From the NCBI GenBank assembly GCA_001724265.1, contig MEDY01000285.1, forward strand, positions 45,809-65,808: a stretch of DNA of 20,000 nt. Reading direction: 5' to 3'. The notes beneath the pieces were generated by a model. The model had not been told where the DNA came from and did not search any database. It saw nothing but the letters and a program-made list of their open reading frames with translations. Positions within the stretch are counted from its first letter, which is position 1. Each line of letters begins with the position of its first letter. This document shows positions 3 through 20,000 of the stretch, piece after piece. The translations under genes were made by a program, and so were the position numbers. This DNA comes from Rhizaria sp. SCN 62-66 (taxonomy: Eukaryota).

Positions 3-641
3 GCGCCCGCGCCGCAGACTCTTAAGTACACCAAGTACGAGGTCCGCGACACGCTCGACGGGCTGATCGACAACGGCCCGCGCGACGATGGCGCGGACCC
101 CGAGGCCGGCGCTGGCGTGATCGAGCGCCGCGAGCGCGTGTTGAAATAGCACGCCGCGCGCGAGGCCGCGGCAGCGGAGCTGCGCGCGCAGGGCAAGGCG
201 GGCAAGAAAAAACTCAAGAAGAAGGCCAAGAACGCTGCTGCTGGTGCGAATACTGCGAAGAAGGACTCTGCGGCGGCGGTGGATGGAAGTGGGTCGTCGC
301 TGAGCCGGTCCAACTCGGCGTCTCTGTCAGCGAACGCGCCGCTCGCGCCTGGCGGGCTGGAGGGGTCGAGCTCCAGTGCGAGCGCCCGGGGCGGCCGCCG
401 CAGCAGCGACGATCTGGGCATGGGCATGGGACTGGGGCTCACGGCGGCGCAGCGCGGGGGCGCGAGCGTGGTCGACGGGCTCGCTTTTGACGATGATGAC
501 GGCGGTAATGAGGATGAGGACGAGGATGCGCTGGCGGAGGCACAGCTGGGACTGGGCACGCAGGCGAAACAACAGCAGCAACAGCAGCGGCGCAAGGACG
601 AGGACGAGGGTGAGGACGAGCTTGCGGGTATCCAGCGTTGA
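3..641 (+). CDS. 3' part of an unknown protein (5' end outside window) with Lys-rich, acidic and poly-Gln C-terminal tail; contains an in-frame TAG at 147-149
   Basis: Frame 3 reads APAPQTLKYTKYEVRDTLDGLIDNGPRDDGADPEAGAGVIERRERVLK*HAAREAAAAELRAQGKAGKKKLKKKAKN...DDDDGGNEDEDED...QQQQQQRRKDEDEGEDELAGIQR*. G/C-ending codon bias is continuous on both sides of the TAG. GC content falls only after TGA 639-641. Confidence 0.75.
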
Positions 642-1060: not shown

Positions 1061-1679
1061 ATGTCCCTGGACGATGATGTTGAGATGTTCACCCTCGTGG
1101 CCAAGGCCGACAACTTCTCTGTTGAGATCGCCAAGGACAACGTCATGGTCTCCGATTTCATCAAGTCCGCCGTTGAGCAGGGTACGTACCATTGTTATCT
1201 ATTGTTGAATTGTGTTTTCATGCCGCTATCCCTGATTTATGTTATACAAAGTCACCTCAAAAGGTTCACTGACCCGTCCTTCATGTTGGCCTCATTTCCC
1301 TGCCAAACCGTTCTTCCCCGCCTCTGCCCTCGCGCCCACAGACCCTTCCGCGACTCGCTTCGAGTTCGACGACATGACGAAGTCCGTTCTGGAGCAGATC
1401 GTGTCGTACCTCAACCACCACAAAGGCAAGCTGCCCCCCGCGGTCGAGACGCCGCTGCGCTCCAACGTGATGCGCGAGGTCTGTTCCGACCCCTGGGACG
1501 CCGAGTACATTGACGGCGTTGCGGGCGCCGGCAACGACGTCGCCGCGCTCTACGCGCTTATGCGTGGCATGCTGCTGCTGGCTATTGACACGCCGTTCCG
1601 TCTGGTTTGCGCCAAGATCGCGTCGCTCATCAAGGACAAGTCCATCGATGAGGCCCGCGACATCCTCAGCGCTAAGTAA
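1061..1679 (+). CDS. SKP1-like: Skp1-family protein (divergent, 152 aa); exons 1061-1181 and 1342-1679
   Basis: Splicing G|GTACGT(1182)...CACAG(1341)| joins two ORF-track frames into MSLDDDVEMFTLVAKADNFSVEIAKDNVMVSDFIKSAVEQDPSATRFEFDDMTKSVLEQIVSYLNHHKG...PLRS...WDAEYID...CAKIASLIKDKSIDEARDIL. This shows the Skp1 POZ motif (L..IV.YL.HH), WD.E(F/Y)I and C.K(I/V)A..IK.K motifs. Confidence 0.88.
1182..1341 (+). other. GT-AG spliceosomal intron (160 nt) in Skp1-like gene
   Basis: GTACGT donor, ACTGAC branch-like site, pyrimidine tract and CAG acceptor. Phase-1 splicing restores the Skp1 frame. Confidence 0.88.
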
Positions 1680-2183: not shown

Positions 2184-3965
2184 ATGGATAAGGCTGCCGC
2201 CACTTCCCCGGCCGCCGCAGCCCCCGCTGCCACCACCCCCGCGGCCGCCGCTCCCGCCGCAGCCTCCCCCGAGGCCAGCAGCGCTTCCCCCGCCGCGCCC
2301 GCCGCCGCCGGTACCGAGGAAGAGGAGGAGCTCCCGCGGTTGCTTGCGGCTGACACAGCAGCCGTGGCTGCCATGGACGCCGCCATCTCAACCCACGGGC
2401 TCGACAGCGTTCCTGCGCTCGCGGCCTGCGTCGCCGCGCTCGATGCGTGGATTCCGTTGTACAAGCTGCAGCCGATGGACGAGCTGCTGCAGCGCATCTG
2501 GGCGCTGTGCCGCGCGCGGTATCAGCCCGCGCCGGACCACGTCAAGCGCCTGCTGCAGGTGGTGCGCGACGCCAAGGAGGCCGGACTCACTGTCGTGCCC
2601 GGTCCGGGGCCTGAGGATACGGCGGAGAAAGACGACGCAGCTGCTGAGGCTAATGATGAGCCGACCGCAGACAAAAAGGCTGGCGACAACAACAACAAGC
2701 CCAGTGGCGGCCCGGATGATACCACGACGACTGCAACAACGGCGGCCACGAAAACGACCGCTGACGCAGACGCAGACAACTCGTCGTTCCCCGCCGCCGA
2801 CTCGGACGGCCACGAGCTGACCGCGCCGGCCCCGTCCCCCGCCGTGCGTGCGCGTCTCGCCGCGGCGGCCCGCACCGCGGCCTCCTTGCTGTCCGGCGTG
2901 GAGTTAACCGACTCTGCTGCCATCGACGCCGCCGTCGCGCGCGCGGACCTCCTGGACGCCACTGAGGCTGTGGCGCGGCGCAACGCGGGCGGGGACCTGC
3001 TTCCGCGCGCGATGCAGCTCAAGGCCTTCCTGCGGTACAAACAGCACCGGTTCCGCGACTCCCTGGCGCTCTTCGCCGCGTTCAAAGCGCTCGTCGGGCC
3101 CTCAGCGGAGCTCTTGGAGAACATGGGCCACGCGCACAACACCGTGGGCGAGCACGAGCGCGCCGTGGCGTGCTTCACCGAGGCGCTGGGCGTTGTCCGC
3201 CTTAAGGCGCAGCTCACGCCCGGGTACTCCGCAGAGGACCACTCCGGTGGGCTGCTACTGGGGCTCGGCGTCTCCCTCAAGCGGACGGGTCGGCTGAGGG
3301 AGGCGCTTGAGACGATGCAGCAGGCGAGGGACGTGTTCATTGCGCGGCACCGCGGGAAAGACCACTCGCTCGTCGGCAAGGCGCTGTCGGCGATGGCCGA
3401 GACGCACGCGCTGCTGGGGGAACCCAAGCAGGCCCTCGCGGCGCATCTGGAGACTGTGCGGATCTTCCGCGCAACGTGCGGCGTGTGCCCTCTGACTGCG
3501 AACGCGCTCGCCGCGCTCGGTCTGTCGCTCCTCTCTCTGGGGCTGGTTGCCGCGGCGCTCGAGGCGCTGGACGAGGCGCTGGCGCAGCACTGTGGGTTTG
3601 ACACGCTCGACCTGCCGGAAATGATCCGGATCACGGATGAGATGGTGCGCGTGCGCGGGGCGCTCGTGGGGCAGCCGTTCCCGAAGCGAGACTCGCCCGT
3701 GCTGACGCTGGGGCGCGCGTTCGGGCCCAGCGTGGCGCCGCTGCGGCGCGGCGTGGCCGCCATGGAGGGGCAGGGCCGCGGCGGCAGCGACGACGCGGCG
3801 GTGTTTTATAAGAGCGCGGGAGAAGTGCTGCTGCTGGCGGGGGAGAAGGCCGAGGCTAAGGTCTGGCTCGGCAAGTCGCTCGCGCTGCTGCGCAAGGTCA
3901 CTGCGGTTGATTGCACGGGGCTCATGGAGACGCTCACGACTCTTATCGCCTTCTGTGACAAGTGA
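2184..3965 (+). CDS. Tetratricopeptide-repeat (TPR) protein, 593 aa, single exon, with Ala/Pro-rich N-terminus and a low-complexity internal segment
   Basis: Long ORF with strong codon bias. TPR-like helix pairs include ELLENMGHAHNTVGEHERAVACFTEAL, LLLGLGVSLKRTGRLREALETMQQA, HSLVGKALSAMAETHALLGEPKQALAAHLETVRI, PLTANALAALG and FYKSAGEVLLLAGEKAEAKVWLGKSL. Confidence 0.8.
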   Translation: MDKAAATSPAAAAPAATTPAAAAPAAASPEASSASPAAPAAAGTEEEEELPRLLAADTAAVAAMDAAISTHGLDSVPALAACVAALDAWIPLYKLQPMDELLQRIWALCRARYQPAPDHVKRLLQVVRDAKEAGLTVVPGPGPEDTAEKDDAAAEANDEPTADKKAGDNNNKPSGGPDDTTTTATTAATKTTADADADNSSFPAADSDGHELTAPAPSPAVRARLAAAARTAASLLSGVELTDSAAIDAAVARADLLDATEAVARRNAGGDLLPRAMQLKAFLRYKQHRFRDSLALFAAFKALVGPSAELLENMGHAHNTVGEHERAVACFTEALGVVRLKAQLTPGYSAEDHSGGLLLGLGVSLKRTGRLREALETMQQARDVFIARHRGKDHSLVGKALSAMAETHALLGEPKQALAAHLETVRIFRATCGVCPLTANALAALGLSLLSLGLVAAALEALDEALAQHCGFDTLDLPEMIRITDEMVRVRGALVGQPFPKRDSPVLTLGRAFGPSVAPLRRGVAAMEGQGRGGSDDAAVFYKSAGEVLLLAGEKAEAKVWLGKSLALLRKVTAVDCTGLMETLTTLIAFCDK

Positions 3966-4353
3966 ACAGGCGTCTCGAATGCTTGGGCGAGAAGATTCAA
4001 GTGAGCTGCCTTCTGCTGCGCGAGGGAATTCTCGCGGTATATATTTGCTGATGAGGAATTCCATCAGGGGCCAGTGATATATTAATACAAAACTAAATCT
4101 ATCTTGTGAAATTTAACTTGGGGGCGCTTAGTACACGGAGAACTATCTTGAATTGTGTGTTCGCCACAAGTTGTTTTGGTGCCAAGCTGTCCAAGGGAAT
4201 GGGTTTGGCGCCCTCTGATCGCCAATGTTCATCGTTAAGTAGCGTGTCGACCATCCGTTACACGGAAATATCAATATTTGTTTCTGGTCTAATTTCTGAC
4301 TTTTGACCACATAATATAGCGACGACGCCTCCAGCGACGTATATCCTGTGCAA

Positions 4354-7300
4354 ATGCACATCAAGCAGATCATTGTCGAAGGGTTCAAGACCTACAAGGA
4401 CCGCACCGTTATCGACAACCTCAGCCCTGGCGCCAACGCTATCGTCGGTCCCAATGGTAGTGGTAAATCAAACATCTTTGCAGGTAAGTGTCTCTGCCCT
4501 CGCAAAACCTCCACCTCTGCTTTATCCTTTCCCCTGCCGACTCGCTCTCGTCGCGCCCTCCCCTCCCACTAATTTGTTGCCTGCACTTGGTATCTTCGCT
4601 CTCGTTTTTCTCATGCTTTCTTGACTTCTCTCTTTGCACACTTGCGCTCTAATCCGTCTCTTGCGCAGCGATTGAGTTCTTGCTCAGCAACGAGTTTGCT
4701 ACGCTGACCCCCGATGAGCGCCGCGCGCTGCTGCACGAAGGCGCTGGCCACCAGTCCGCCGCCGCGAGCGTCGAGATCATCTTCGACAACGCCGACGGCC
4801 GCATCCCCGTCGAGCGCCGTGACACAGTCTCGCTGCGCCGCACCATGGGCACCAAGAAGGATGAGTACTTCCTCGACGGCAAGCACATCACGCGCTCTGA
4901 AGTGGTTTCGCTGCTCGAGTCCGCTGGTCTGTCGCGGTCGAACCCGTACTACATCGTCCAGCAGGGCAAGGTTGCGAAGCTGATCAAGATGCGCGACGCC
5001 GAGCGCCTCGACCTTCTGATGGAGATTGCCGGCACGCGCACGTACGACGAGCGCCGCGCCGAGTCCCTGCGCGTCATGGCCGAGACCGACGCCAAGCGCA
5101 AGGAAGTCGCCGAAGTACTTGCGTCGATCGAGAAGCGCGTCGCCGAGCTCGAGGCCGAGAAGACGGCTCTGCGCGCGTTCCAGGACGCCGACGCCGACCG
5201 CCGCGCGCTCGAGCACGCGCTGCTTTCCCGCCGCGAGCGCAGGCTGGCCGAGGCGCTCGCCGCGCTCGACGCCGCGCGCGCCGCCGCGGGGGATCAGTCC
5301 GCGCAGCTCCACGCCGCCGCCGCCGCCGCCGCCAAGGAGAGCCAGGCGGCCGCGGCCGAGCTCGCGCGTGCTGGTGACGCCGCTGCTGAGGTGCAGGGCC
5401 GTCGCGCCGGCCTCGAGCAGACGCGTCAGACACGCGCGGTTGCATTAGCGCAGGCCGAGGCCGCGGCGCGCGAGGCCGCCGACGCGCGCGCCGCCGCCGA
5501 GGAGGCCGCGGGCAGTGCGCGTCGCGAGCGCGCGGAGCTTCTGGCTCAGATTGAGGCCGCGCGCGGGGAGGTCACGCGCGCGGAGGCCGCCGCGACGGCC
5601 GCGGCGACAGCTGCGAGCGAGGCACGCGCGCGCAGTGGGCTGCTCGAGCAGCGTAAGTTGCAGCTGCAGGCGAAGCAGGGCCGCGCGGAGCAGTTCGCGG
5701 ACAAGAAGGCCCGCGACGCGCACCTGACGGCGCAGATCAAGGCGCTTGAGAAGGAGGCCGCCGCCGCCGACGCCGCCGCGGCCGCCGCCGAGAAGGACGC
5801 CGCCGCGGCCGAGACCGCGCGCGCCGCCGCCGCCGCCGTCGCCAACGCCAAGCCCTCCGAAGTCGCCGCCGGTGAGGCCGCGCTTGCTTCACTCGAGCGC
5901 GACGCTGCGGCGGCCCGTGTGGAACAAGATGCGGCACAGAACGCGCGGCGCGAGGCGTGGCGCGCGCTTGAAGCCGCCGAAGCCGCCGTCAAAGACGCTG
6001 TGGCGAGGACGGAGGCGGCGCGGCGCGACGCGCAGGCGACGATGGACCGTGAGGTCTTCCGCGGACTCGAGGCCGTGCGGCGGCTGGCGCGCGAGCACGG
6101 CATTGCGGGCGTGCACGGACCGCTTGTGGACCTGATCCAGTGCGATAAGCTGTTCCAGCCGTGCGTCGAGACGGTCGCGGGCGGCGCGTTATTCCACGTC
6201 GTGGTCGACTCGGACGCCGTCGCGGCGAAGCTCATCGCGCTGCTGAACCGGGAGAAGGCCGGCCGCGTGACGTTCATGCCGCTGTCGCAGCTGCGCGAGT
6301 GGCCGGTGCGGTACCCGCAGCGACAGGACTGTCTGCCCATGCTCCAGCGACTCACGTTCGACCCCAGGCACCGCGCCGCAGTCTTTCAGGTACGGAAAGG
6401 CTTACTCACGCAAAACTATGACTGTCGCGTTGTTTGACTACAGTCGCATGTATTGTTTTCAATCGTATGTTACACTCTTTAAATCTAACTCATTTTGTAA
6501 TTTTTTGTTTTAACTTGATATCTTCAATCTGTGTAGGTGTTCGGTCGCACTGTGATCGTACGCTCGCTGCCCGTGGGCTCGGAGGTGTCCAAGTCGCACA
6601 ACCTCGACTGCATCACCGCTGGCTGCGAGCGCGTCTCCCGCCGCGGCGCACTGACGGGCGGTTTCGTCGACACCGACGTCTCCCGTCTGCGCCGCGCACA
6701 TGCCCACCGTGAGGCCATCACAGCGCAGACCGCGGCCGAGGCCGAGGTCGCCCGTCTGCGCACCGCCGTCGACGACGCCGACGCGCGCGTAACTGCGTTC
6801 ATGTCCTCGCTCGCCAAACTGGCACAGGCGCGCGCGGCCGCGGCGGAGAAGGTCCGCGCCGCGCAGACGCTGGCCACGGACGCGGCGGCCGAGGCGCGCG
6901 CGCTAGCCGACGCTGCCGCCGCCAAGCGCGTCGCCGCCGCGACGGCCGCCGCCAGCCGCGCGCTGCTGCAGGAGCAGCTCGACGCCCACCGGGCCGAGAT
7001 CAAGGCGCCTTTCGACGCGGAATTGGGCGCGAAGGACCGCCGCGCGCTGGCCGACATCACTGCGGAGGCCGCCGCGGCGGGCACGGCCGCCAACGACGCT
7101 GCGGGCGCCGAGGCCGAGGCCGCAGTCCGCGCAGACCGCGCGCGCGCGCACTTAGAGGGTTTTTTGCTGCGGCGCTTGGCCGAGGTGCAGGCCGCCGAGG
7201 CGCGCGCGCTCGCCGCCGCCGGTGAGGCCGCCGACGCGGCCGCTGCGGCCGAGACGGACCTGCGCGCGGCCAAGGCGGGCGCTGAGGAGGCCCGCGCCGC

Positions 7301-8687
7301 GCTCAAGGCCGCCGAGCGCGACGAGGCGGCGGCTGCAGAGGCCGTGACTGCGGCGGGCAAGCGCGCGGACGAGGCTCGCGCCGCCGAGGCCGGGGCACAC
7401 AAGGACGCCGCGGACGCCTCGCAGTCGGCCGGACAGGTGCTCGGCCGCGCGGCGGTGCTGGAGCAGCAGCTGGGCGAGACCCGCCGGGACATGGCCGCGC
7501 TGGGCGCGCTGCCGGCGGCGGCGCTGGACGCGTTTGCCAACACGCCGCTGCGGGAGCTCGAGGAGAAGCTTTCCCGCGCCGTCGCAGCCGTGGCGAAGCA
7601 CGCGGGCGTGAACAAGCGGGCGCCGGAGCAGGCCGCGGAGCTCAAGCAGCAGCGCGAGGAGCTCGAGGCGCGCCGCAAGGAGATCGACCGTGGACGCGCG
7701 AGCATCGTGGAGCTCATCGAAGGACTCGACCTGAAGAAGGATGAGGCGATTGACCGCACGTTTAAGGCCATCGGGCAGCATTTCTCGCAGGTATTCGCGG
7801 AACTCGTGCCCGGAGGCAAGGGCACGCTCGTGCTGCACTCGCGTGCGGGCGCGGGCGCCGGCGCCACTGCGGCTGCAGGCGAGGCGACGGACCTGGCTCA
7901 GGGCGGTGGGCGGATGCGCGATGATGACGACGACGATAACAAGGCCGGCTCAGAGTCCGAGTCCGATTCCGAGCAAGAGGAAGAGGAGGAGAGTGCTGAC
8001 GAAGGCGAGGATGCGCGCGCCGGCAGCCGCCGCAAGCGCAAGGCTCCTGGAGCCGCTGGCGCCGCGGGCAAGAGCCGCAAATCCATCTCCGCCGCCACTG
8101 CGGGCGCGCGCTCCCCGGGTCGTGCTTCTTCCTCCTCCTCCTCTGCGTCTGCGTCTGCGTCTGCGCAGGAGGAACGCAAGGAGAGCAAAGAAGGCAAGAG
8201 AGACAAGAAGAAGAGTGAGGAGGACCGCACGGGCGCCCGCCTTGCCGCGCTTGCCGGCGCGGGCGGGTCCGCGCTGCGCTTCTCCGGCGTCGGCATCCGC
8301 GTCGCGTTCTCGGGACAGAAGCAGCAGGCGACGGCGCTGCTGTCTGGTGGACAGCAGTGCGTTGTCGCGTTATCGCTCATCTTCGCCATCCAGCGCTGCG
8401 ACCCGTCGCCGTTCTACGTCTTCGACGAAATCGACGCCAACCTGGACGCCGTGCATCGCACCGCGGTCGCGGCGCTGCTCGCGAAGCAGAAGGCGACGAC
8501 GCAGTTCGTCGTCACGACGTTCCGGCCGGAGTTCCTGACCGCGATGGACCGCTTCTATGGTGTGCGCTTCCTCAACAAGACCTCGGTGGTGCGCGAGATC
8601 GGCCGTGCGGAGGCGCAGGCGCTGGTCAACTCTGGTGAGAGCGCCCCGCCCGCTGCCGCTGCTGCCGTCGCCGGCGCGGGCAAGTGA
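4354..8687 (+). CDS. SMC3: Structural maintenance of chromosomes protein 3 (cohesin), ~1333 aa; exons 4354-4483, 4669-6389, 6537-8687
   Basis: [14 protein letters not shown] start; Walker [18 protein letters not shown] (Eco1-acetylated KK pair, 4854-4859); [13 protein letters not shown]; hinge motifs [10 protein letters not shown]...GRVTFMPL...VFGRTVI...GALTGGF; signature LSGGQ; Walker [13 protein letters not shown]3-type [10 protein letters not shown]. Both splices preserve the frame. Confidence 0.97.
4484..4668 (+). other. SMC3 intron 1 (185 nt)
   Basis: CAG|GTAAGT donor, C/T-rich body, TCTAAT branch site and GCAG acceptor. Splicing gives ...[12 protein letters not shown]... Confidence 0.93.
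6390..6536 (+). other. SMC3 intron 2 (147 nt)
   Basis: CAG|GTACGG donor, AT-rich body and TAG acceptor. Splicing gives hinge sequence ...[12 protein letters not shown]... Confidence 0.93.
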
Positions 8688-9231: not shown

Positions 9232-11973
9232 TTACATGGGGAGGAGCTCGTCGCCAAGATCGCCGTCTCCCCAGTCGTCAGCAGTGTTGGGCGCGCCGGG
9301 CATGTTGACCGGTGCACCGCGGTGCGCAGGAGCAACCATATCCGCGTTATCAGTAAGACCAAAACCCTGCTGTTGATGCTGCTGTTGCTGCTGTTGCTGC
9401 ATGGCAACCTGCTGCTGGTAGGCCTGGTGCTGCTGGTATGCGAGCTCCTCGTCGTCCTGCTGCTGCATCTGCTGCTGCTCGTATTGCGCCTGCGCGCGCG
9501 CTTCCTCCATCTGCATCTGTTGTTGCTGCTGCTGCTCGTACTGCTGCTGTTGCTGGAGCTGCTGCGCCTGTGACTGGTGGTCACCGTACCCGCCCGCGCC
9601 GCCAGCCATGTTGGCCGCGTGCGCGCGCTCGGCCTGCGCGAGCAGCTCGGCGAAATGCGCCGCCTGCGGGTCGCCCAGCTCGCGCGTCAGCATCGCGAGA
9701 TACTTAAGGCACTCGACTGAGTCGGGGTCCTGCGCGTGGATCGCCTTGTAGAGCCCCAGCGCGGCCGCCGTGTCGCCCATGCGGCGGTAACACGCGGCGA
9801 CCATGAGACGCCACTTGCCCTCGTGCGGCTCGATCAGCGCGGCGCGGTGAAAGAACTTGATCGCCTCTTCGTGGTTGCCTTGCTTGACGTACCACACACC
9901 GAGCCAGGAGATGACTTCGAGCGCGACGGGGTACACGTGGTGCGCGTCGAGGAAGAACTGCGCCGCCGCGGCCTCGGACTCGTACCGGCACGCGATAGAG
10001 CCGATGCGGGCGAGCACCTTGGCGTCGTTGGGGACGACACCGTGGAGGATCTTGAACCACTCGGCCGCCTCACCGCCTTCGCGCATCACGTCGTACAGGT
10101 TGCCGATGTGGTAAATCACCTGCGGGTCCTTGGGCACAAGGCGGTGCAGCTTCTTGAACGCCTGCAGCGCGTCAGGGAGCTGGCCCAGCCGCTTATTGCA
10201 AAGACCGAGGTTGTAGATAGCCTCGACACAGTCGGCTTCGACACCAATGGCCTCGAGGTAGAGCTCGCGCGCGGCATCCAGCTCGTCCTTGACGAAGTGG
10301 ATGTTGGCCTTGTTCACCAGCGCGCGCGCGTTGTAGCGGTCCGCACGCACGGCCACGTCCGCCTTGGCCTCGGCGTTGGCGAAGTCGCCCTCGAGGAAGT
10401 ACAGGAAGGACAGATTGGTCGCGGCCTGGTCAACAAGGCCCTGATCACGCGCCTCGAACGATTGGAACACCTCGTACGCCTGCGCAATCTGTTTGTTCTT
10501 GAGGTACGCAATACCCTTGGCAATCTCCAGCTCCATCGCGATGTGCGGAAAGCCGCCGTGGATGTCCTTGGCACCGACCCGCGCGCCCTCACCGGCAGCA
10601 GCATCGTCGTCCTCGTGCGCCAGCGACGGGTTCTTGAGCTCCTCCATCACCCAGTCGTAGCCTTCGCTGAGGACGGGTGAGATGGCCGGCGCAAGCAGGC
10701 GCGCCGCCGTCTGCACGTACGAGTGGAAGCGCTTCTGACGCACGCGCATCTCCTTGACCAAGTCATCAGCGCCGGACTTGTCCGAGCCAGAGCCCGTGCC
10801 GGCGGAGGATAGCCCCATGGCGGAGAACGCGCCCCCCACGGTCGAGCCAAAAGGGTTGCTTGCGCCTGGCGCGGCAAAGACGGCGTCCTCATCGCCCGCG
10901 GTCTCGAACTCGTCCTTGACGGAGAGGAGGAGAGAAAACGCGCGCTGCATCTTGCCGACGTCGCCGGTGGCGTAGTGAGCGATGAAGAGGTTAAACACTG
11001 TCTGCGCGTCGGTGAGGCGCGCGGAGCCGATGGGGCCGCCCGCGGCGGTGCCGTCAAGCTCCAGCACGGCCTCGAAGGCCTGGATGGCCTCGTGGAAAGA
11101 CCCGGTGCGGAGGTGCGCGACGCCGATGTTGCGCATGATGCGCATGCGGAGTGCGCGGTGCGAGCCTGCGTCGAGCTGATCCACGGCCATGCGGTACATC
11201 TTAATCGCGGCGACGTACTTCTTAAGCTGGAAGTAGATGTTGCCGATGTTGACCTTGACACGGCCTGCAAGCGGGTGCTCACGGTCCTTGGCGATCGCAG
11301 TGTAGGCGCCAATCGCCTCGTTAGCCATGCCGGCGGACTGGTAAGCGTGCGCCAGAGCAAACGCGGCCGCGAACGTGAGATCCATGTTGTTCTGCTCGGC
11401 CGTATTAGTGGCCTTGCGGTGCTTAACGAGTGCGTGCTCACGCTTCACGGCCTCCTTGGCCATCTCCAGCGCCGGCAGCTTCTGCCCGGCCGCCGTCAGC
11501 GAGGCAGTCTCCTCCAGCGCACGGTGAACCGCCTTCTCGAGCTCGCGCGCCTGCTGCTCCGGCCCGTCAGTGCTCGTCTTGGCCAGCGCGGGCGCGGGGC
11601 CCTGCGTGGCCTGACCCAGGGGGTCGAACCGCTGCGTGCCGAGCATGGGCGCAGCGGTCGTTAACCCAGCGCCAGCAGGCTTGCCAGATGAGTATCCGGC
11701 GCCGCGGACGGAAGACAGCGCGCGGTGGACGTTGCCGCCCGCGCCAGTGTCGCCACCGGAGCCGGCGGCGCTGCCGGGGGCGCGCATCTGAGACGGCAGC
11801 GCGCCCGCGCCCGCGCCCGCGGCGCCGGGAGGACGGCGGGTGCCGAGCGGGCCTGTGGGGTTGGAGCGCGCGACGGAGGCGAGGATGCGCGAGGGCGCGG
11901 ACGCGAGCTCGTCGTAGCCCTCGTAGATGTCGTCGTCTTTCTTCGCCGCGACGGGCTTGCGGAGGGCGGACAT
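9232..11973 (-). CDS. IFT88: Intraflagellar transport protein 88 (IFT-B TPR subunit), 913 aa, single exon
   Basis: Motifs RVKVNIGNIYF..K.Y..AIKMYRMA.DQ, AATNLSFLYFLEGD, DRYNARALVNKAN, EAIGVEADCVEAIYNLGL, VISWLGVWYVK, KWRLMVA.CYRR.G and a C-terminal DDWGDGDLGDELLPM are all characteristic of IFT88. Confidence 0.96.
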   Translation of the reverse strand: MSALRKPVAAKKDDDIYEGYDELASAPSRILASVARSNPTGPLGTRRPPGAAGAGAGALPSQMRAPGSAAGSGGDTGAGGNVHRALSSVRGAGYSSGKPAGAGLTTAAPMLGTQRFDPLGQATQGPAPALAKTSTDGPEQQARELEKAVHRALEETASLTAAGQKLPALEMAKEAVKREHALVKHRKATNTAEQNNMDLTFAAAFALAHAYQSAGMANEAIGAYTAIAKDREHPLAGRVKVNIGNIYFQLKKYVAAIKMYRMAVDQLDAGSHRALRMRIMRNIGVAHLRTGSFHEAIQAFEAVLELDGTAAGGPIGSARLTDAQTVFNLFIAHYATGDVGKMQRAFSLLLSVKDEFETAGDEDAVFAAPGASNPFGSTVGGAFSAMGLSSAGTGSGSDKSGADDLVKEMRVRQKRFHSYVQTAARLLAPAISPVLSEGYDWVMEELKNPSLAHEDDDAAAGEGARVGAKDIHGGFPHIAMELEIAKGIAYLKNKQIAQAYEVFQSFEARDQGLVDQAATNLSFLYFLEGDFANAEAKADVAVRADRYNARALVNKANIHFVKDELDAARELYLEAIGVEADCVEAIYNLGLCNKRLGQLPDALQAFKKLHRLVPKDPQVIYHIGNLYDVMREGGEAAEWFKILHGVVPNDAKVLARIGSIACRYESEAAAAQFFLDAHHVYPVALEVISWLGVWYVKQGNHEEAIKFFHRAALIEPHEGKWRLMVAACYRRMGDTAAALGLYKAIHAQDPDSVECLKYLAMLTRELGDPQAAHFAELLAQAERAHAANMAGGAGGYGDHQSQAQQLQQQQQYEQQQQQQMQMEEARAQAQYEQQQMQQQDDEELAYQQHQAYQQQVAMQQQQQQQHQQQGFGLTDNADMVAPAHRGAPVNMPGAPNTADDWGDGDLGDELLPM
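9367..9578 (-). repeat. Coding CAG/CAA-rich poly-Gln region in IFT88 C-terminal tail
   Basis: Several (CTG/TTG)n runs on + strand encode QQLQQQQQYEQQQQQQMQM...QYEQQQMQQQ...MQQQQQQQHQQQ. Confidence 0.9.
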
Positions 11974-12652: not shown

Positions 12653-14517
12653 TCAGGGCCGCGCCTCGTCATAGCGCGTCTCCTCCACCAGCTCCTCCAT
12701 CAGTTGCAGCAGCGACCCGGCCTCCTCTGCCGTGAACATGCGGTCCATGCCGCAGCGCCACCGCACGAGCCCGCGCTCGTCAAGCAGGAAGAAGTAGGAC
12801 GCACCTGCGTTGCGGCAGTCGAGCACAGTGCGCGCGCGCCCCAGCGGCTCCTCGGGCGTCGCCTCGAAGAACGGCAGCGTCCACTCGTGCAGGTGAGGCG
12901 GCACCTGACGCTCGAGGTTGCTGCGGATCGACCCCGACAGCAGAGACTTGACCAGGTGACCGTACGCGAGGCTCAAGTTGAGCGCGGTCACAGACACGGG
13001 GCGCGGTCCAGCGCCAGCGCCAGTGCCGGCGGGGGAGCCCTTCTTGCCAGAGCCGCGCGCGCGGTCCTTGCCCTGCGCACCCGCAGCCACAGCCGGAGCC
13101 ACGGCCACAGCAGCAGCAGCGTCAGCCTCGGTATTGTTCGCAGTAGCAGAAGCACTGTTAGCGCTGTTACTGTTGTTTCCGGGCGCGAGGGCAAGGAAGT
13201 GCTGCGCGACAATGCGCTGCATGCCAATCGTGGGGCCAAACCCCTTCTCCGAGGCCGAAAGCGCGATGAACGTCACGCGCCCAGGCACCTGCACGAGCTC
13301 GCGCAGAGTCACCTGTGCGCCTGAGAGCGCGCGCGCGTGCAAGTCCATGGCGCCCACCAGCGCCACGTCGGCCGCGGACACGCCGCCGGGCAACGCGGCG
13401 GCGGCGACGCCAGCGTTCTCGCCCGCCGCCGCGGCGGAGGCGGAGGCAGAGGGGGCGGCGGCAGCGCCACCGGCGGCCGCGGCGATGGCGGCCGCGGTGG
13501 CGGGGCGGGCCTGCATGCTCACAGTCGCACGCTTCAGCCCGCCCTCGGTCCCCGCCGCGCCCGCAGACGCCGCAGTGCCCTCAGTGGATGAGGACGCAGA
13601 TGCTGCGCCGGAGCTGTTGTCGCCGCCACCGCTGCTAGAGAGCATTTTGCGCGCGAACGTGCCCTCCATGTCTGTGCGGAGAGTCTGGAACTCTGCAGCC
13701 CACAGGGGCACGAACAGGGGGGCGCCGTGCGCGCGCGCGAGACGCGTCGGCGGGGGCGGGAAGACGATGCTTGCGTTCACAGCGGCCTGGCTCAAAGACA
13801 GGTCCATCGCGCGCTCGGCGGAGCGGGAACTAAGAGGGAAAAAAAGTAAGCAAACGAGATGAGTGTCAGCAATGGCAACACATCACATAGTACGGGAAAA
13901 TAAATATTAGGCGTGAAGTTGATGCATTGTTAAACGTACGCGCTGGCGTTGACAAACTCGCGGCGGGCGCGCCAGGCATCCTTAACCTTGGAGAAAAGCC
14001 CAGCTTTAGGCTCGTTTGCTTTGGCCTCGGCCTGAGCCTTGGCAACCTCCGGATCTGCAGCAGCGGCGGCAGCAGCGGCCTCGGCTGCCTCAGCTGCGGC
14101 GGCGTCGGCAGCTTCCCGTTCCTTGGCCTTCTCAACAGCAGTGCGCGCCTTGTCGATGACGGGTTTGAGCTTGCGCTGCATCTCGGCCTTCTTAGCGCGG
14201 GCGACGGCGCGTTCGGCAGCGACCTGTGCGTCAGTCTTGAGGTCAGCGAGTGAGTGCACTTCACCGGGCTGCGGCAGGGACTGCAGGTTCGGGTTTGCGC
14301 CCGGCTTGCCCGTGGCGGGCTTGTCCGCGGGGGGCGCCGCAGCGGGGTCAGGCTTGGAGAATAAAAACGGCCGACGGGGGGTCGCGGTGACAGTGACAAG
14401 GGCGCTGCCGCTGGCACTGACGCTGGGAAAGACAGGGGCCGCGGAGAACAAGCACGAGGGCGGGACCGCGCTGCGCATGGTCCGCGCCAGCGACGCAACA
14501 GAACGGAAGCGCTGCAT
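12653..14517 (-). CDS. ATP10: Mitochondrial ATP synthase assembly factor ATP10-like, 584 aa; exons 14517-13940 and 13829-12653
   Basis: N-terminus MQRFRSVASLARTMRSAV looks like a mitochondrial presequence. ATP10-like blocks are FPPPPTRLARAHGAPLF, GRVTFIALS, KSLLSGSIRSNLERQVPP and LDCRNAGASYFFLLDERGLVRW...TAEEAGSL. A phase-2 intron joins ORFs 13930-14547 and 12653-13807 in frame (...VNASA-SRSAERAMDLS...). Confidence 0.82.
13830..13939 (-). other. ATP10-like intron (110 nt)
   Basis: On the minus strand: GTACGT donor, GCTGAC branch site, TTTTTTTCCCTCTTAG acceptor. It is an AT-rich island between GC-rich exons and preserves the frame. Confidence 0.9.
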
Positions 14518-15114: not shown

Positions 15115-17268
15115 ATGGATCCCTCGTCGAGCTCAACAAGCGGGCGCGGCCTGAAGCGCCCCGCGTCTCCCGGCGGCGCTCCAACGGACAACAACACCAG
15201 CGACGGCGGCCTGGCTTTCGTGCCGCTGCACGTGCGCCGCGAACGCGAGCGCGAGCGCCTGGAGGAAGTGTCGCGCCAGACGGCCGCCGCGCACGTCCGC
15301 CGCCTCCGCGCCGCGGAAGACAACGCCCGCGCCGCCGCGATTGCAGCCGCCGCTGCGAACGGTGGAGCAAATGGAGCTGCGCCACCGGCGAACCCTGACT
15401 CGCAGAAGACGCTGATGCAGATCCAGCAAGAGCTGCTGCTGGAGCGCGGCGGCGTGCATATTACTGACGAAGAGCGGTTGCGCGCGGAAGAGCAGAAGCT
15501 GCTAGAGAACCTCTCGATGGAGCGCGCGCCGCTGCTGGGCCGCAAACAAGTCGCGGGCACTGGCGAGGTGTTCACTCAAGCGCTTGAGACCGGGTGGCGG
15601 CCGCCGCGGCACGTCCGCACGCTGCCGCAGTCCGCACACACGGCCACGCGCGCCAAGTTTGGGATCACGCTTGAGGGCGGGGCCGCCGAGGACGCGTCCG
15701 TGCCGCCGCCCATCACCAAGTTCGCGCACATGCGCCTGCCTCCCGCGATCTTGGCCGCGCTCAACGCCAAGGGGATCCACACGCCGTCGCCGATCCAGAT
15801 GCAAGGGCTGCCCGTGGTGCTCTCTGGCCGCGACATGATCGGCATCGCGCTCACAGGCTCCGGTAAGACCCTTGTGTTCACACTCCCTATGGTAGTCTTC
15901 GCGCTCCAAGCAGAGGCCGTTCAGCCGCTCGCGCGCGGCGAGGGCCCCGTCGGGCTGGTCATCGTCCCCAGTCGCGAGCTCGCGGTGCAGCACGCGGCCC
16001 TCGCGCGGCATTTCGCGGCGTATGTCAACGCTGCGACGGGTGCGTGTCCGCCGCCTGAGGGCGCTATCGAGGCCGGACTGGTACCGCCCGCGCCACTCGA
16101 TCTCAACAGCATCGACCACGGCGGCGCAAGCGCACCGGGCGGTTTCCATAGCAACAACAACAACAACAATCAGCAGTCGCGGTCGCAACAGCAGTACGCG
16201 GCCCAGAGTGCGCAGGCGCGTGCTCAGGGCCAGACCGCGGGCTCCGGCGCACTGCGTTTCCCTCAAGTCGGCAAGATCTCCGTCATCACGGCCATCGGCG
16301 GCGTGAACATGGCCGAAGAGTACGCCGGCGTCGCGCCCGGCTGCGGCGTCCACATCGTTGTCGCCACGCCCGGTCGGCTTGTCGGTATGCTAGAGCAGAA
16401 GAAGCTCAGCATGGCCCGCTGCGTGTACCTCGCGATGGACGAGGCTGACCGACTCGTGGACATGGGGTTTGAGGAGTCGATGCGCGCCGTGTTCGACGCG
16501 TTCCCGCACCAGCGGCAGACGGTGCTCTTCTCGGCGACAATGCCGAAGAAGATCCAGGAGTTCGCGCTCACTGCCCTCGTGGAGCCCGTGGTCGTCAACG
16601 TGGGCCGCGCCGGCCGCGCCAACATGGACGTGATCCAGGAGGTTGAGTATGTCAAGCAAGAGGCCAAGTCGCTGTATTTGCTTGAATGCTTGCAGAAGAC
16701 GCCGCCGCCGGTGATTGTGTTTGCGGAGAAGCAGAGCACGGTGGACCATATCCACGAGTACTTGCTACTCAAGGGTGTCGACGCCGCGGCAGTGCACGGT
16801 GGCCGCGGGCAGGAAGAGCGTACGCGCGCGATTAAGGAGTTCGAGACAGGCGTCAAGGACGTTCTGGTGGCCACGGACGTCGCCGCGAAGGGTCTCGATT
16901 TCCCGGCCATTCAGCACGTGATCAACTACGATATGCCGAAAGAAATCGAAAATTACATTCACCGGATCGGTCGTACGGGCCGTTCCGGCAAGACCGGTGT
17001 CGCGACGTCGTTCGTGAACCGCGACTGTGAGGAGCTGTTCCTGCTCGATCTCAAGCACTTGCTGAAGGAGGCGCGGCAGAAGATTCCGCCCGTGCTGAGC
17101 GCACTGGAGGATCCCAGTGAGTTTGTGGGCGCGGATGGTGATGAGACGCGTGTGTGCGAGTACTGTGATGGCCGTGGACACCGTGTGATTGAGTGCCCGA
17201 AGCTGCAGAAGAAGAATAAGGCGATGAAGAACACGTACGGATACGATATGGTCGAGGACCAGTCATAA
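15115..17268 (+). CDS. DDX41: DEAD-box RNA helicase DDX41/abstrakt (spliceosomal), ~717 aa, single exon
   Basis: TGWRPPRHVR; Q motif PSPIQMQGLP; GRDMIGIALTGSGKT; PSRELA; ATPGRL; DEADR; SAT; VEYVKQEAK.LYLLECLQKTPPP; IHEYLLLKGV; HRIGRTGRSG; LLDLKHLL.EA.Q..PP; C-terminal zinc knuckle CEYCDGRGHRVIECPKL. I prefer ATG 15115 over TTG 15100 as start. Confidence 0.96.
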   Translation: MDPSSSSTSGRGLKRPASPGGAPTDNNTSDGGLAFVPLHVRRERERERLEEVSRQTAAAHVRRLRAAEDNARAAAIAAAAANGGANGAAPPANPDSQKTLMQIQQELLLERGGVHITDEERLRAEEQKLLENLSMERAPLLGRKQVAGTGEVFTQALETGWRPPRHVRTLPQSAHTATRAKFGITLEGGAAEDASVPPPITKFAHMRLPPAILAALNAKGIHTPSPIQMQGLPVVLSGRDMIGIALTGSGKTLVFTLPMVVFALQAEAVQPLARGEGPVGLVIVPSRELAVQHAALARHFAAYVNAATGACPPPEGAIEAGLVPPAPLDLNSIDHGGASAPGGFHSNNNNNNQQSRSQQQYAAQSAQARAQGQTAGSGALRFPQVGKISVITAIGGVNMAEEYAGVAPGCGVHIVVATPGRLVGMLEQKKLSMARCVYLAMDEADRLVDMGFEESMRAVFDAFPHQRQTVLFSATMPKKIQEFALTALVEPVVVNVGRAGRANMDVIQEVEYVKQEAKSLYLLECLQKTPPPVIVFAEKQSTVDHIHEYLLLKGVDAAAVHGGRGQEERTRAIKEFETGVKDVLVATDVAAKGLDFPAIQHVINYDMPKEIENYIHRIGRTGRSGKTGVATSFVNRDCEELFLLDLKHLLKEARQKIPPVLSALEDPSEFVGADGDETRVCEYCDGRGHRVIECPKLQKKNKAMKNTYGYDMVEDQS

Positions 17269-17939: not shown

Positions 17940-20000
17940 TCAGAGCGTGCCCCACACCTCATCGATGACCTCCGTGGCCTTGGCCAGCGCGGCCTCCACC
18001 CGCGCCCCACGGCCCACGCCAAAGACCGCCTCGCCGGCCTGCGCCAGGAACGGCCCCAGCGCGTGTCGCGCCGTGAGCGCCGCCGCCGTCAGCGGCTCGG
18101 GCGGCTCGCCCCCCGCAGACCCCGCTGTCGCGACAGTGGAGTTGGCGCCCCCCACCGCAGTTGCGGACCGCGAACAGAGGCTGAACAGCGCGCCCAGCGC
18201 GTCAACGCCGTCAGACGCGAGCGCGCTGGGCGCCACGCTGACCGCCGCATCCCCCGCGGCCGCGCCGCGGCGCCGCAGCCGCGCGAAGCGGCCCGCGGCT
18301 GCGGCCTCGGCGTCAGCGCGCGCGGCGGCCGCGCCGAGGGGCCCAGCGGCGCGCAGCAGCCCGCGCACCGCCGCCGCTACGGCCGCGGCCGCCGCAGCGC
18401 CCCACAGCGCCGCGGCCGCGTTCCCAGCGGCATCCGTCTCACTCGCGGTCGCCGCAGAGTCCGCGGCGGAGTCTGCAGAGGCTGCGGCTGCAGCTGCGGC
18501 GCTGGCGATGGCGACGGCGACGGGCGCGGTTGCGAGGAGGGAGTTGGCCAAGCGCGCCAGCGGCGGGCACCGTAGCAGCAGCTGCGCCGCGCGCGGCAGG
18601 GCAGCCAGCGCCGCATCACTGTCCGGGCCCAGCCAGTACGGCTCGTCAGCGCCCTCTGCAGCCAGCGCTGCTGCAGCGGCTGCAGCGGAGTCGTTGCTGC
18701 CAGAGCCAGTGCTGTTACTGCCGCAGCTGCTGCCTGCGCCGGCGCAGCGGCGGAGGAAACTGCCCTCGGCCGCCGCGCCCGCGTGCGCCGTCGCGCGGAG
18801 CAGTGCCGCGGCAGCGGCGGCGGCGACGGCGCGCACAGCGGCGGGCGGCGCGGCGGCGGCGAGCGCGGCAATTTCCGCCGCGCTCGGCAGGAACAGGACC
18901 GTGGCACGGGCGCCCGCCGCCGCTGTTGCAGCCGCTGCTGAGGAAGCAGTGGAGTTGGCAAGGGTGGGCACGGCGAGTGCGGACGCGAGCAGTTGCAGCG
19001 GCGCGGCGGCGGCGACGGCCGGTGCGAGACACAACACGTCGACCGCGGGGGCCGCGAGAGCGCGCGCGGCCTCAGCTTCGGCCTCTGCGACGGCGTCGGC
19101 ATCAGCAGCTGCGGCAGCGGCGCCGGCGATGAGACCAGGCTGCGAGAATGCACCGTCACCAGGCGCAGTCGCCGGCGCAGTCGCGGGCGCAGGGAGCGCG
19201 GGCAGGCCCTGTGTCGCGAACGCGGCCGCAGTCAAAGCCGCAGCAGCCGCGGACTGCGCGTCTGTCCCGCTTGCAGTCCGCGCTGTCTCAGTACCCGCAG
19301 CAGCAGCGGTGGCGGCGGACGGGAACACGTTCGCTGCGACAGCTGCCGCGACCGCAGCGGCCGCGGAAGCCACACGCGTCCCCGCCGCGGCGATGGCGGC
19401 CGCGCTATCCGCGGCCGCGACCGCGGGACCAGCGGCTGCGGCCGCGGCGGCTGCGGAGGCGGCCGCGGCCGCGTCGGCTTCGCTGAGCGCGAGCGCATTC
19501 ACGCCACCGCTGTGCGTCGCGGCGGCGGCCACGGCGGCGGCGGCCGCGGCGTCGGCAGCCGCAAGCGCCTGCAGCGGCGACAGACCCGCGACACTGCCAG
19601 CCTGCGTGCCGCTCATGCTTGTCATCGCGAGCAGGGGCGCGAGGAGGGTGGCGACAGTGCCCCAGCCTGCAGCAGCCAGTACGGCCAGCGCGGCGGACAC
19701 TGGCAGCGCCTGCGCGCGCGCGGCCGCGAGGGACGCCGCCTCGGCCACCGCCGCGTCGCCAGAACTCGAACCTGCGCCAGAGCTCGAGCTTGCGGGGACC
19801 GGGGCGGCCGCGTCGTCACCGGCGTCGGCCGCGGGCATGACGAGAGCGGAGAGCACCGCCAGCAGGCGCGCACGCGCCGCGGTGAGGCGCGGTGTGGCCG
19901 CTGCGGCGGGGACAACGGCGGCGCGCGCGGCGGCCGCGGCGCGGGCGGCGGCGGCGGCGCGCGCGGCGCGGGCCAGCGTGCGCAGTGACGCCGGCGCGCC
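17940..20000 (-). CDS. 3' part of a large, extremely Ala-rich unknown protein (5' end outside window)
   Basis: The frame is open from position 20000 to TGA at 17942-17940, with no stop upstream of the ORF-track GTG 19856. GC drops sharply after the stop. Leu-rich helical blocks are separated by poly-Ala, and the protein ends ...ALGPFLAQAGEAVFGVGRGARVEAALAKATEVIDEVWGTL. Confidence 0.8.
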   Translation of the reverse strand, partial: GAPASLRTLARAARAAAAARAAAAARAAVVPAAAATPRLTAARARLLAVLSALVMPAADAGDDAAAPVPASSSSGAGSSSGDAAVAEAASLAAARAQALPVSAALAVLAAAGWGTVATLLAPLLAMTSMSGTQAGSVAGLSPLQALAAADAAAAAAVAAAATHSGGVNALALSEADAAAAASAAAAAAAAGPAVAAADSAAAIAAAGTRVASAAAAVAAAVAANVFPSAATAAAAGTETARTASGTDAQSAAAAALTAAAFATQGLPALPAPATAPATAPGDGAFSQPGLIAGAAAAAADADAVAEAEAEAARALAAPAVDVLCLAPAVAAAAPLQLLASALAVPTLANSTASSAAAATAAAGARATVLFLPSAAEIAALAAAAPPAAVRAVAAAAAAALLRATAHAGAAAEGSFLRRCAGAGSSCGSNSTGSGSNDSAAAAAAALAAEGADEPYWLGPDSDAALAALPRAAQLLLRCPPLARLANSLLATAPVAVAIASAAAAAAASADSAADSAATASETDAAGNAAAALWGAAAAAAVAAAVRGLLRAAGPLGAAAARADAEAAAAGRFARLRRRGAAAGDAAVSVAPSALASDGVDALGALFSLCSRSATAVGGANSTVATAGSAGGEPPEPLTAAALTARHALGPFLAQAGEAVFGVGRGARVEAALAKATEVIDEVWGTL

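Follow-up and report, generated by a model that had tools for sequence, protein, structure and literature searches.

The window analysed here, the last 20 kb (20,000 nucleotides) of contig C285 of Rhizaria sp. SCN 62-66, opens inside a gene for a calmodulin-like EF-hand protein that carries an in-frame TAG at positions 147-149. This TAG is best read as one ordinary instance of a genome-wide use of UAG as a sense codon. From sequence comparisons we propose a variant nuclear code in which UAG is a rare third codon for glutamate (Glu) and UAA and UGA are stop codons, a reading to which we give a probability of about 0.68. That UAG is read as an amino acid is nearly certain, and that the amino acid is Glu is very probable. 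The eukaryotic assembly (34.9 Mb, 714 contigs) derives from metagenomes, and its DNA occurs in metagenomes of bioreactors and wastewater. In all, reading covered about 2.5% of the genome. The organism, an uncultured protist, has spliceosomal introns, with GTACGT as the commonest donor, as well as IFT88 and GC-rich, Ala-rich exons.

The EF-hand gene starts upstream of the window, with its ATG at position 721 of locus L001, and has a single intron (L001 927-1060) that is visible as a GT..AG joint in sequencing run X5. The TAG (context GTG TTG AAA TAG CAC GCC) is codon 265 in a protein of 428 residues that matches Pfam EF-hand_7 (E 2.8e-7), and 163 open codons follow it before the TGA at 639-641 (Table 1). 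The fraction of G or C at third codon positions (GC3) is 0.78 in this tail, compared with 0.80 before the TAG and 0.50 in the 163 triplets after the TGA, and the coding log-odds per codon are 0.55, 0.30 and -0.84, respectively. The coding model was trained on sampled DNA with the three stops handled alike; its training set initially held the window's 48 codons before the TAG, and the tail codons were excluded. Of 8,000 candidates scored in a search with the read-through frame, two proteins matched. P0242 (P0244 at full length), the closer of the two, is 84% identical over the best local alignment, matches through ERRERVL, carries a Lys-rich patch in the corresponding place and ends in DELDGLVT, compared with DELAGIQR here. 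It has no stop at the position of the TAG, where an ungapped alignment places Ala. On these sequence grounds, the tail is part of the EF-hand protein and the TAG is passed. An earlier, sequence-only reading of the window had described an uninterrupted frame across the TAG with coding bias in the 163 codons beyond it, and this description held. Its other counts held as well: the GC content drops only after the TGA (from about 0.70 to 0.46), the eight gene ends are five TGA, three TAA and no TAG, all with a purine at +4, and the stop scans list no further internal TAG in the window. A ninth end, the TAA at 13930 (giving nine frame ends, five TGA and four TAA), was rejected, as it lies directly behind a GTACGT donor and the gene model joins its frame to the gene ending at 12653.

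Stop codons were tallied in 53 stretches (540 kb), comprising the window, four upstream stretches and 48 stretches from large contigs at fixed offsets; a self-trained gene finder that merged genes and over-called introns was kept out of all counts. Stops with coding sequence on both sides were TAG in 10 cases, TGA in two and TAA in none, those with coding sequence before and non-coding sequence after were TAA in 31, TGA in 46 and TAG in four, and 20 were unclear (TAG 11, TGA 5, TAA 4). The clear classes alone separate TAG from the other stops (Fisher p 7e-9), with the caveat that a loose donor motif lies near 11 of the 31 TAA and 15 of the 46 TGA ends, some of which may therefore be intronic. 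On reading, one of the four apparent TAG ends stands behind a GTACGT donor, two are likely in the wrong frame and one has eight more coding-like codons before a TGA. None of them is a convincing terminator, and two further candidate TAG ends in other loci are likewise explained otherwise on reading. UAA and UGA end genes, and no sense use of either was seen in this sample. Three stops, two TGA and one TAA (L005 7401 plus strand, L089 3518 plus strand and L189 2459 minus strand), have coding-like sequence behind them; long GC-rich untranslated regions (UTRs), frame changes or selenocysteine are possible there, and another frame scores about equally.

A symmetric scan, in which each stop in turn was allowed inside coding segments, found 19 internal TAGs, spread over 17 of 173 segments with 122,957 codons in total, and each of them looked exonic when read. 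The two internal TAA and nine internal TGA (five clusters) from the same scan looked instead like intron, UTR or wrong-frame sequence. In-frame TAG thus occurs about once in 6,500 codons (~0.015%), or at less than 1% of Glu codons (GAG 4,315, GAA 714). Among 142 matches to the Pkinase family, nine have a lone TAG, one a lone TAA, none a lone TGA and four mixed stops; five of the nine lone TAGs are exonic and four are intron acceptors. Exonic in-frame TAGs were found in six kinase domains, including that of a RAF-like kinase (L252), in UBE2J1, in two ubiquitin proteases and three times within the first 630 codons of one long helicase frame (L243 2-9997, contig C37). The latter frame exceeds 3,300 codons and has a Dicer-like helicase start, and Helicase_C is its sole Pfam match. 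A gene that reads as P2X-receptor-like (L158, contig C150) has an in-frame TAG 29 codons before its TAA. Five other families (164 matches) gave no exonic TAG among the loci fetched: DEAD (43 matches) and kinesin (54), with one acceptor TAG each, SNF2 (25 matches, one lone TAG that is an acceptor), ABC_tran (20) and AAA (22), both with no TAG; mixed-stop SNF2 and UCH matches were left out. Two pattern searches were set aside. A codon-periodic pattern gave 17 matches, mostly antisense, and its apparent GTPase NKxD motif, which would mean Lys, is the tail of the P2X-like protein. A Gln/Glu-run pattern gave 777 matches, not above control and mostly in other frames, and was uninformative.

The pattern of a CUA anticodon loop had four matches (control 20), one of which is a well-formed tRNA gene on contig C84 (L041 1489-1561, minus strand). 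It scores 58 bits with the Rfam tRNA model (gathering score 29), in a search that scored 63 of 506 candidates. This tRNA(CUA) is identical to tRNA-Glu(CUC) at 47 of 73 positions, compared with 40 for Glu(UUC) and for His, 39 for Asp, 33 and 27 for the glutamine (Gln) tRNAs and 33 for Leu(CAG); the comparison covered 42 distinct sequences from fetched loci and Asp, with Phe, Pro and some Gly, Leu, Ser and Val isoacceptors not recovered. The acceptor pairs U1-A72, C2-G71, C3-G70, C4-G69 and A5-U68 are those of both Glu tRNAs, unlike those of the Gln tRNAs, the T stem is common to Glu(CUC), and there is no long variable arm. All 21 stem pairs are kept relative to Glu(CUC), five of them by two-sided and three by one-sided changes, and such pair-keeping divergence points to an old gene under selection. 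The free-energy fold of the tRNA alone is not significant (z -1.5); a T-run lies behind the gene, and the adjoining gene is in the codon style of the genome. ARAGORN labels it as pyrrolysine tRNA, a label that follows the anticodon. Pyrrolysine tRNA has a six-pair anticodon stem, short loops and no TPsiC, and the gene on C84, with its canonical cloverleaf, five-pair anticodon stem and GTTCGAATC, is ruled out as one on tRNA architecture. No tRNA with a UUA or UCA anticodon was found in two pattern searches (an intronless pattern, with five matches run through ARAGORN), which intron-containing tRNAs would escape.

The proposed code could have arisen through duplication of tRNA-Glu(CUC) and a C36-to-A change in the anticodon of one copy, giving a CUA that would pair with UAG and not with UAA. 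UAA can stay a stop codon because a CUA anticodon is unable to pair with it, as reported for other UAG-only codes (PMC5304391; PMC11687900). The copy, presumably charged by glutamyl-tRNA synthetase, would have diverged to 64% identity from its parent with all stem pairs kept, and UAG would have been lost from gene ends and slowly re-entered coding DNA as an efficiently decoded codon. Its rarity may be explained by the strong GC bias of the coding DNA and the single CUA tRNA gene found.

The release factor was examined through a PF03463 search, with three matches that represent one eRF1 gene and two pieces of one pelota-like gene. The eRF1 gene (L007, contig C63) has four exons and 441 codons, ends in TAA and itself carries a TAG at codon 111 in the N domain. 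The same TAG is present in a metagenome locus of a second assembly (L119), identical over 1,626 bases and possibly from the same sample. Compared with 117 homologues, the N domain has the changes T32S, M34V, G57S, T58K, L124M, L126M and K130Q. T32 and G57 are found in 117 of 117 homologues, and Ser at both positions is seen here and not in the closest relative, P0005 (84% identical), to which several of the other changes are common; in a quick tree, the two share a long branch. Thr32 is reported as a contact of the G in UAG (PMC5304391). The proposed code would include a loss of UAG recognition by eRF1, yet the N-domain sequence does not demonstrate it: eRF1 keeps E55, NIKS, L69, S70, Y125, N129, F131 and YxCxxxF, and in human eRF1 in vitro the T32S change is reported to have had little effect on any of the three stops (PMC3632111). 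The eRF1 genes of 31 other metagenome loci are distant, with no stop at the site among the rows listed. Two divergent eRF1 transcripts from other metagenomes (L132 and L133) have in-frame stops within the match and probably belong to other organisms with variant codes.

Retention by eRF1 of most residues tied to UAG reading fits the alternative that fares best, an unfinished change in which tRNA-Glu(CUA) competes with an eRF1 still reading UAG. The product would then be mostly Glu with some truncation, and eRF1 would limit itself through its own UAG. The scarcity of UAG as a sense codon and the single CUA tRNA gene fit this idea, as does the setting of the TAG in eRF1, a gene with a GC3 of 0.90 and only seven A-ending sense codons, whose single AAA (one of 32 Lys codons) directly follows the TAG and places A at +4 (L007 1596-1591, minus strand). 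Mimivirus offers a known case of a release factor gated by an internal stop (PMC3521657). If eRF1 ignores UAG, the TAG in its gene is a matter of chance, for which the measured rate gives about 7% in 441 codons, and this figure is weak as evidence. Several points speak against an unfinished change: no convincing TAG gene end in the sample, tolerance of TAG in kinase domains, an E2 enzyme, ubiquitin proteases and three times in one helicase frame, and Val, not a stop, at the site in P0005. Sequence context adds no sign of selection for leakiness. The 39 in-frame TAGs picked by hand have mixed flanks, none of them shared, and the share followed by G at +4 (9 of 39) is the same as that after CAG codons (24%). 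Selection on the +4 position was rejected for this reason, splice-site avoidance or mutational origin being sufficient explanations. We regard an unfinished change as unlikely. Somewhat less likely again is its specific form in which eRF1 reads UAG weakly and the UAG in its gene acts as a bacterial-style feedback switch in a cellular eukaryote, holding UAG termination low enough for the new code.

The identity of the residue was addressed with alignment columns at seven sites (eRF1, UBE2J1 and five kinase sites), the kinase columns being built from paralogues, not orthologues. The column log-likelihoods are E -13.2, D -16.6, T -23.1, K -25.5, L -27.8 and Q -29.3, so that Glu leads by 3.4 log units over Asp and by 16 over Gln. 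Left out of this score were the window site, L201 (an insertion), the CIMR and USP sites (few or no homologues) and L211. At the eRF1 site, which aligns with human Glu107, the column holds E 106, D 10 and V 1 of 117 homologues, and at the TAG in the hinge of the L252 kinase it holds E 20, D 4 and other residues 3 among 27 paralogues. The UBE2J1 column is mixed (D 35, N 32, H 16, S 15, T 12, E 7 and G 3 of 120), and UBE2J1, the CaMK-like L175, L203, the CIMR repeat and the USP5-like site are too variable to call. Editing of A to I, which would give Trp, was rejected: Trp has the lowest column score of all residues, and TAG is what the X5 contig contains.

A number of observations count against Glu. 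Two conserved sites, eRF1 and the L252 hinge, carry the signal; when both are removed, D (-12.0), E (-12.5) and T (-13.2) are indistinguishable, with Gln still seven units lower. Val stands at the eRF1 site in the closest relative, P0005, and the hinge TAG of L252 corresponds to Ser (KSR) or Gln (RAF) in its top five relatives of solved structure. The TAG site of the kinase L198 is Gln in human NEK1, a ubiquitin-like copy (L211) carries TAG in place of the CAG found in the genome's ubiquitin, and five of the 39 hand-picked TAGs stand between Gln codons. A flank-composition score over all 39 TAGs ranks Gln first, although it flips between Gln and Glu with or without the poly-Gln sites. The window site itself is not conserved and is uninformative on the encoded residue. 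The L211 frame (C681:1512-4727) is long, with an internal repeat, the ubiquitin copy and a C-terminus recalling a viral fibre-protein chaperone domain, and is possibly a mobile or viral insert.

These sites could favour Gln, as in Iotanema, and Gln also stands at the eRF1 site in three of the 31 metagenome-locus rows listed, while Asp, second in the column score, and Lys are further candidates. TAG at Gln-type sites would fit a C-to-T change of CAG that makes a tolerated Gln-to-Glu replacement, and it fits decoding as Gln too. In an unconstrained poly-Gln run, the same change yields TAG whatever its meaning, and GAG, CTG, CCG and AAG interrupt such runs too. Gln is absent from three columns (0 of 117 at eRF1, 0 of 120 at UBE2J1 and 0 of 27 among the hinge paralogues), and the only CUA tRNA found has a Glu-type acceptor stem, unlike the Gln tRNAs; it is this tRNA that tips the balance toward Glu. 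From the aligned sequences, Gln and leucine (Leu) fit worse than Glu, though some sites favour Gln, and a code with Gln, Asp, Lys or another residue in place of Glu is improbable. The sequence-only reading was thus borne out by the genome-wide sample in taking UAG for a rare sense codon beside UAA and UGA stops; its choice of Gln or Leu was not, given the Glu-type tRNA and the alignment of the two best-conserved sites with Glu.

It had also raised the possibility of a readthrough switch specific to the EF-hand gene. AAA before a stop and C after it make a leaky context, and this is the context here; the EF-hand domains are complete before the TAG, so that the standard code with programmed readthrough would add an optional tail. 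Several findings make such a switch highly improbable: in-frame TAGs with mixed contexts in many unrelated genes, some inside domains that cannot be cut, a cognate tRNA gene, an orthologue tail without a stop, and no stable RNA structure behind the TAG (z +1.56). Equally hard to credit is an assembly error, nonsense allele or pseudogene, which a metagenome assembly would allow, contigs hiding rare variants, but which would also give TAA, TGA and frameshifts, not TAG alone, and for which the only eRF1 gene found, with its own TAG, cannot be a pseudogene. A DNA contig of run X3 spans the TAG at 147-149 with no differences (L001 1598-2666); X3 is possibly the same data set as X2, a run from one study with the possible source run, so its independence from the source campaign is doubtful. 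The TAG is also covered with no differences by an X5 contig, which extends just 13 bases beyond it, below the 31-base rule for bridging. The X5 library has two spliced GT..AG joints, though the run is flagged as possibly DNA, and a second X5 contig covers positions 191-756 of the window. No near-identical piece over the TAG is among the pieces listed for runs X4 and X7. A protein ending at this TAG is recorded on seven public contigs, P0251 being such a truncated call.

The remaining genes of the window are given in Table 1. Neither part of the gene at 12653-14517 has a Pfam match, and its end may resemble ATP10.

Table 1. Features of the 20-kb window, with positions counted from its first nucleotide.
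Feature	Position	Strand	Evidence
Last 48 codons before the TAG, exon 2 of the EF-hand gene	3..146	+	coding score, Pfam, orthologue P0242
In-frame UAG, codon 265; most likely Glu	147..149	+	sequence, contigs, orthologue, coding score
163-codon C-terminal tail: helix end, Lys-rich patch, Ala/Gly/Ser-rich linker, acidic and poly-Gln stretches, acidic end DELAGIQR	150..638	+	coding score, orthologue
True stop TGA, +4 G	639..641	+	GC drop, coding score
Skp1-like	1061-1679	+	weak Pfam match
TPR protein	2184-3965	+	Pfam
SMC3-like	4320-8687	+	by reading
IFT88-like	9232-11973	-	by reading
Two open frames joined by an intron at ~13830-13939, mitochondrial-type leader	12653-14517	-	gene model
DEAD-box helicase	15115-17268	+	by reading and DEAD family search
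Ala-rich frame, no Pfam match	17940-20000	-	reading frame, Pfam search

Further observations concern the organism and its samples. An 18S rRNA gene of about 4.4 kb (L118 1501-5945, contig C706) is very divergent, possibly from another organism. It has several long insertions resembling group I introns, one of which, by reading, apparently has a His-Cys-box-like reading frame. The organism's ubiquitin is divergent and starts with MSMQIFVK, occurring as single copies and ubiquitin-L40 fusions (L209, L232-L235). No head-to-tail polyubiquitin was found among 23 ubiquitin matches, in which ubiquitin junctions were not assembled. Runs X4 and X7 hold contigs that are 85-90% alike to L001 1057-1406 and 2856-3014, with differences mostly at third positions; these point to a related species in those samples.

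Nuclear codes in which UAG alone is reassigned are reported for the rhizarian exLh (Leu) and Iotanema spirale (Gln) (PMC5304391), and for phyllopharyngean ciliates (Leu, Gln), Protocruzia tuzeti (Gln) and Scotinosphaera (Ser) (PMC11687900). The present genome resembles them in its coding UAG, its UAA and UGA stops and a CUA tRNA unable to read UAA, and differs in the residue, which here would be Glu. The eRF1 of Iotanema is changed at Thr32 too (T32G), compared with the mild T32S seen here together with G57S, T58K and K130Q. Use of UAG is also far sparser, in 17 of 173 coding segments here compared with 78-91% of genes in the ciliates named and about 8% of Gln codons in Iotanema. If the organism is a sainouroid, this would be a second, different change of UAG in that group.

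A UAG within the gene of a release factor has its own parallels. In bacteria, prfB contains an internal stop at which a frameshift makes the release factor self-limiting. The class-I release factor of Mimivirus and Megavirus is reported to have internal stops (PMC3521657), and a readthrough and nonsense-mediated decay circuit of plant eRF1-1 to act at the terminal stop and 3' UTR (PMC5397192). By analogy, all of these would share with the eRF1 described here a release-factor mRNA translated past a stop codon; here the factor is a cellular eRF1 and a cognate tRNA would read the codon.

In the literature covered, reassignment of UAG to Glu is described only together with a change of UAA to Lys or Glu. 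Oligohymenophorea sp. PL0344 reads UAG as Glu with tRNA(CUA) genes most similar to tRNA-Glu, as here, but has UAA as Lys, UGA as stop and 10 CUA tRNA genes (PMC10553269), whereas the present genome yielded one CUA tRNA gene and uses UAA as a main stop. Blastocrithidia (PMC12153298) and the peritrichs Campanella and Carchesium (cited in PMC10553269) read UAR, that is UAA and UAG, as Glu, with a tRNA-Glu(CUA) derived from a Glu tRNA as here. In Blastocrithidia, UAA is recoded with a UUA tRNA, and UAG makes up 1.4-1.7% of codons in an AT-rich genome (PMC12153298), compared with ~0.015% in GC-rich coding DNA here. The sense use of UAA and the UUA tRNA of the UAR = Glu and Lys/Glu codes were not encountered in the 540 kb of stops or the two tRNA pattern searches. 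Open-licence PMC and bioRxiv literature and the list in PMC11687900 gave no code with UAG as Glu and UAA as stop; subscription papers, databases or supplements may hold a prior report. The sequences thus support the addition of a nuclear code not found described. With an extremely rare recoded codon in GC-rich coding DNA, unlike the codes compared above, standard annotation would truncate a minority of genes unnoticed, as in P0251, and other assemblies may conceal similar codes. Given the tRNA gene, the eRF1 sequence and its internal UAG, codon capture versus an ambiguous intermediate becomes a testable question. Among the known systems, UAG as Glu with UAA still a stop would be the predicted one-step intermediate toward the UAR = Glu and Lys/Glu codes.
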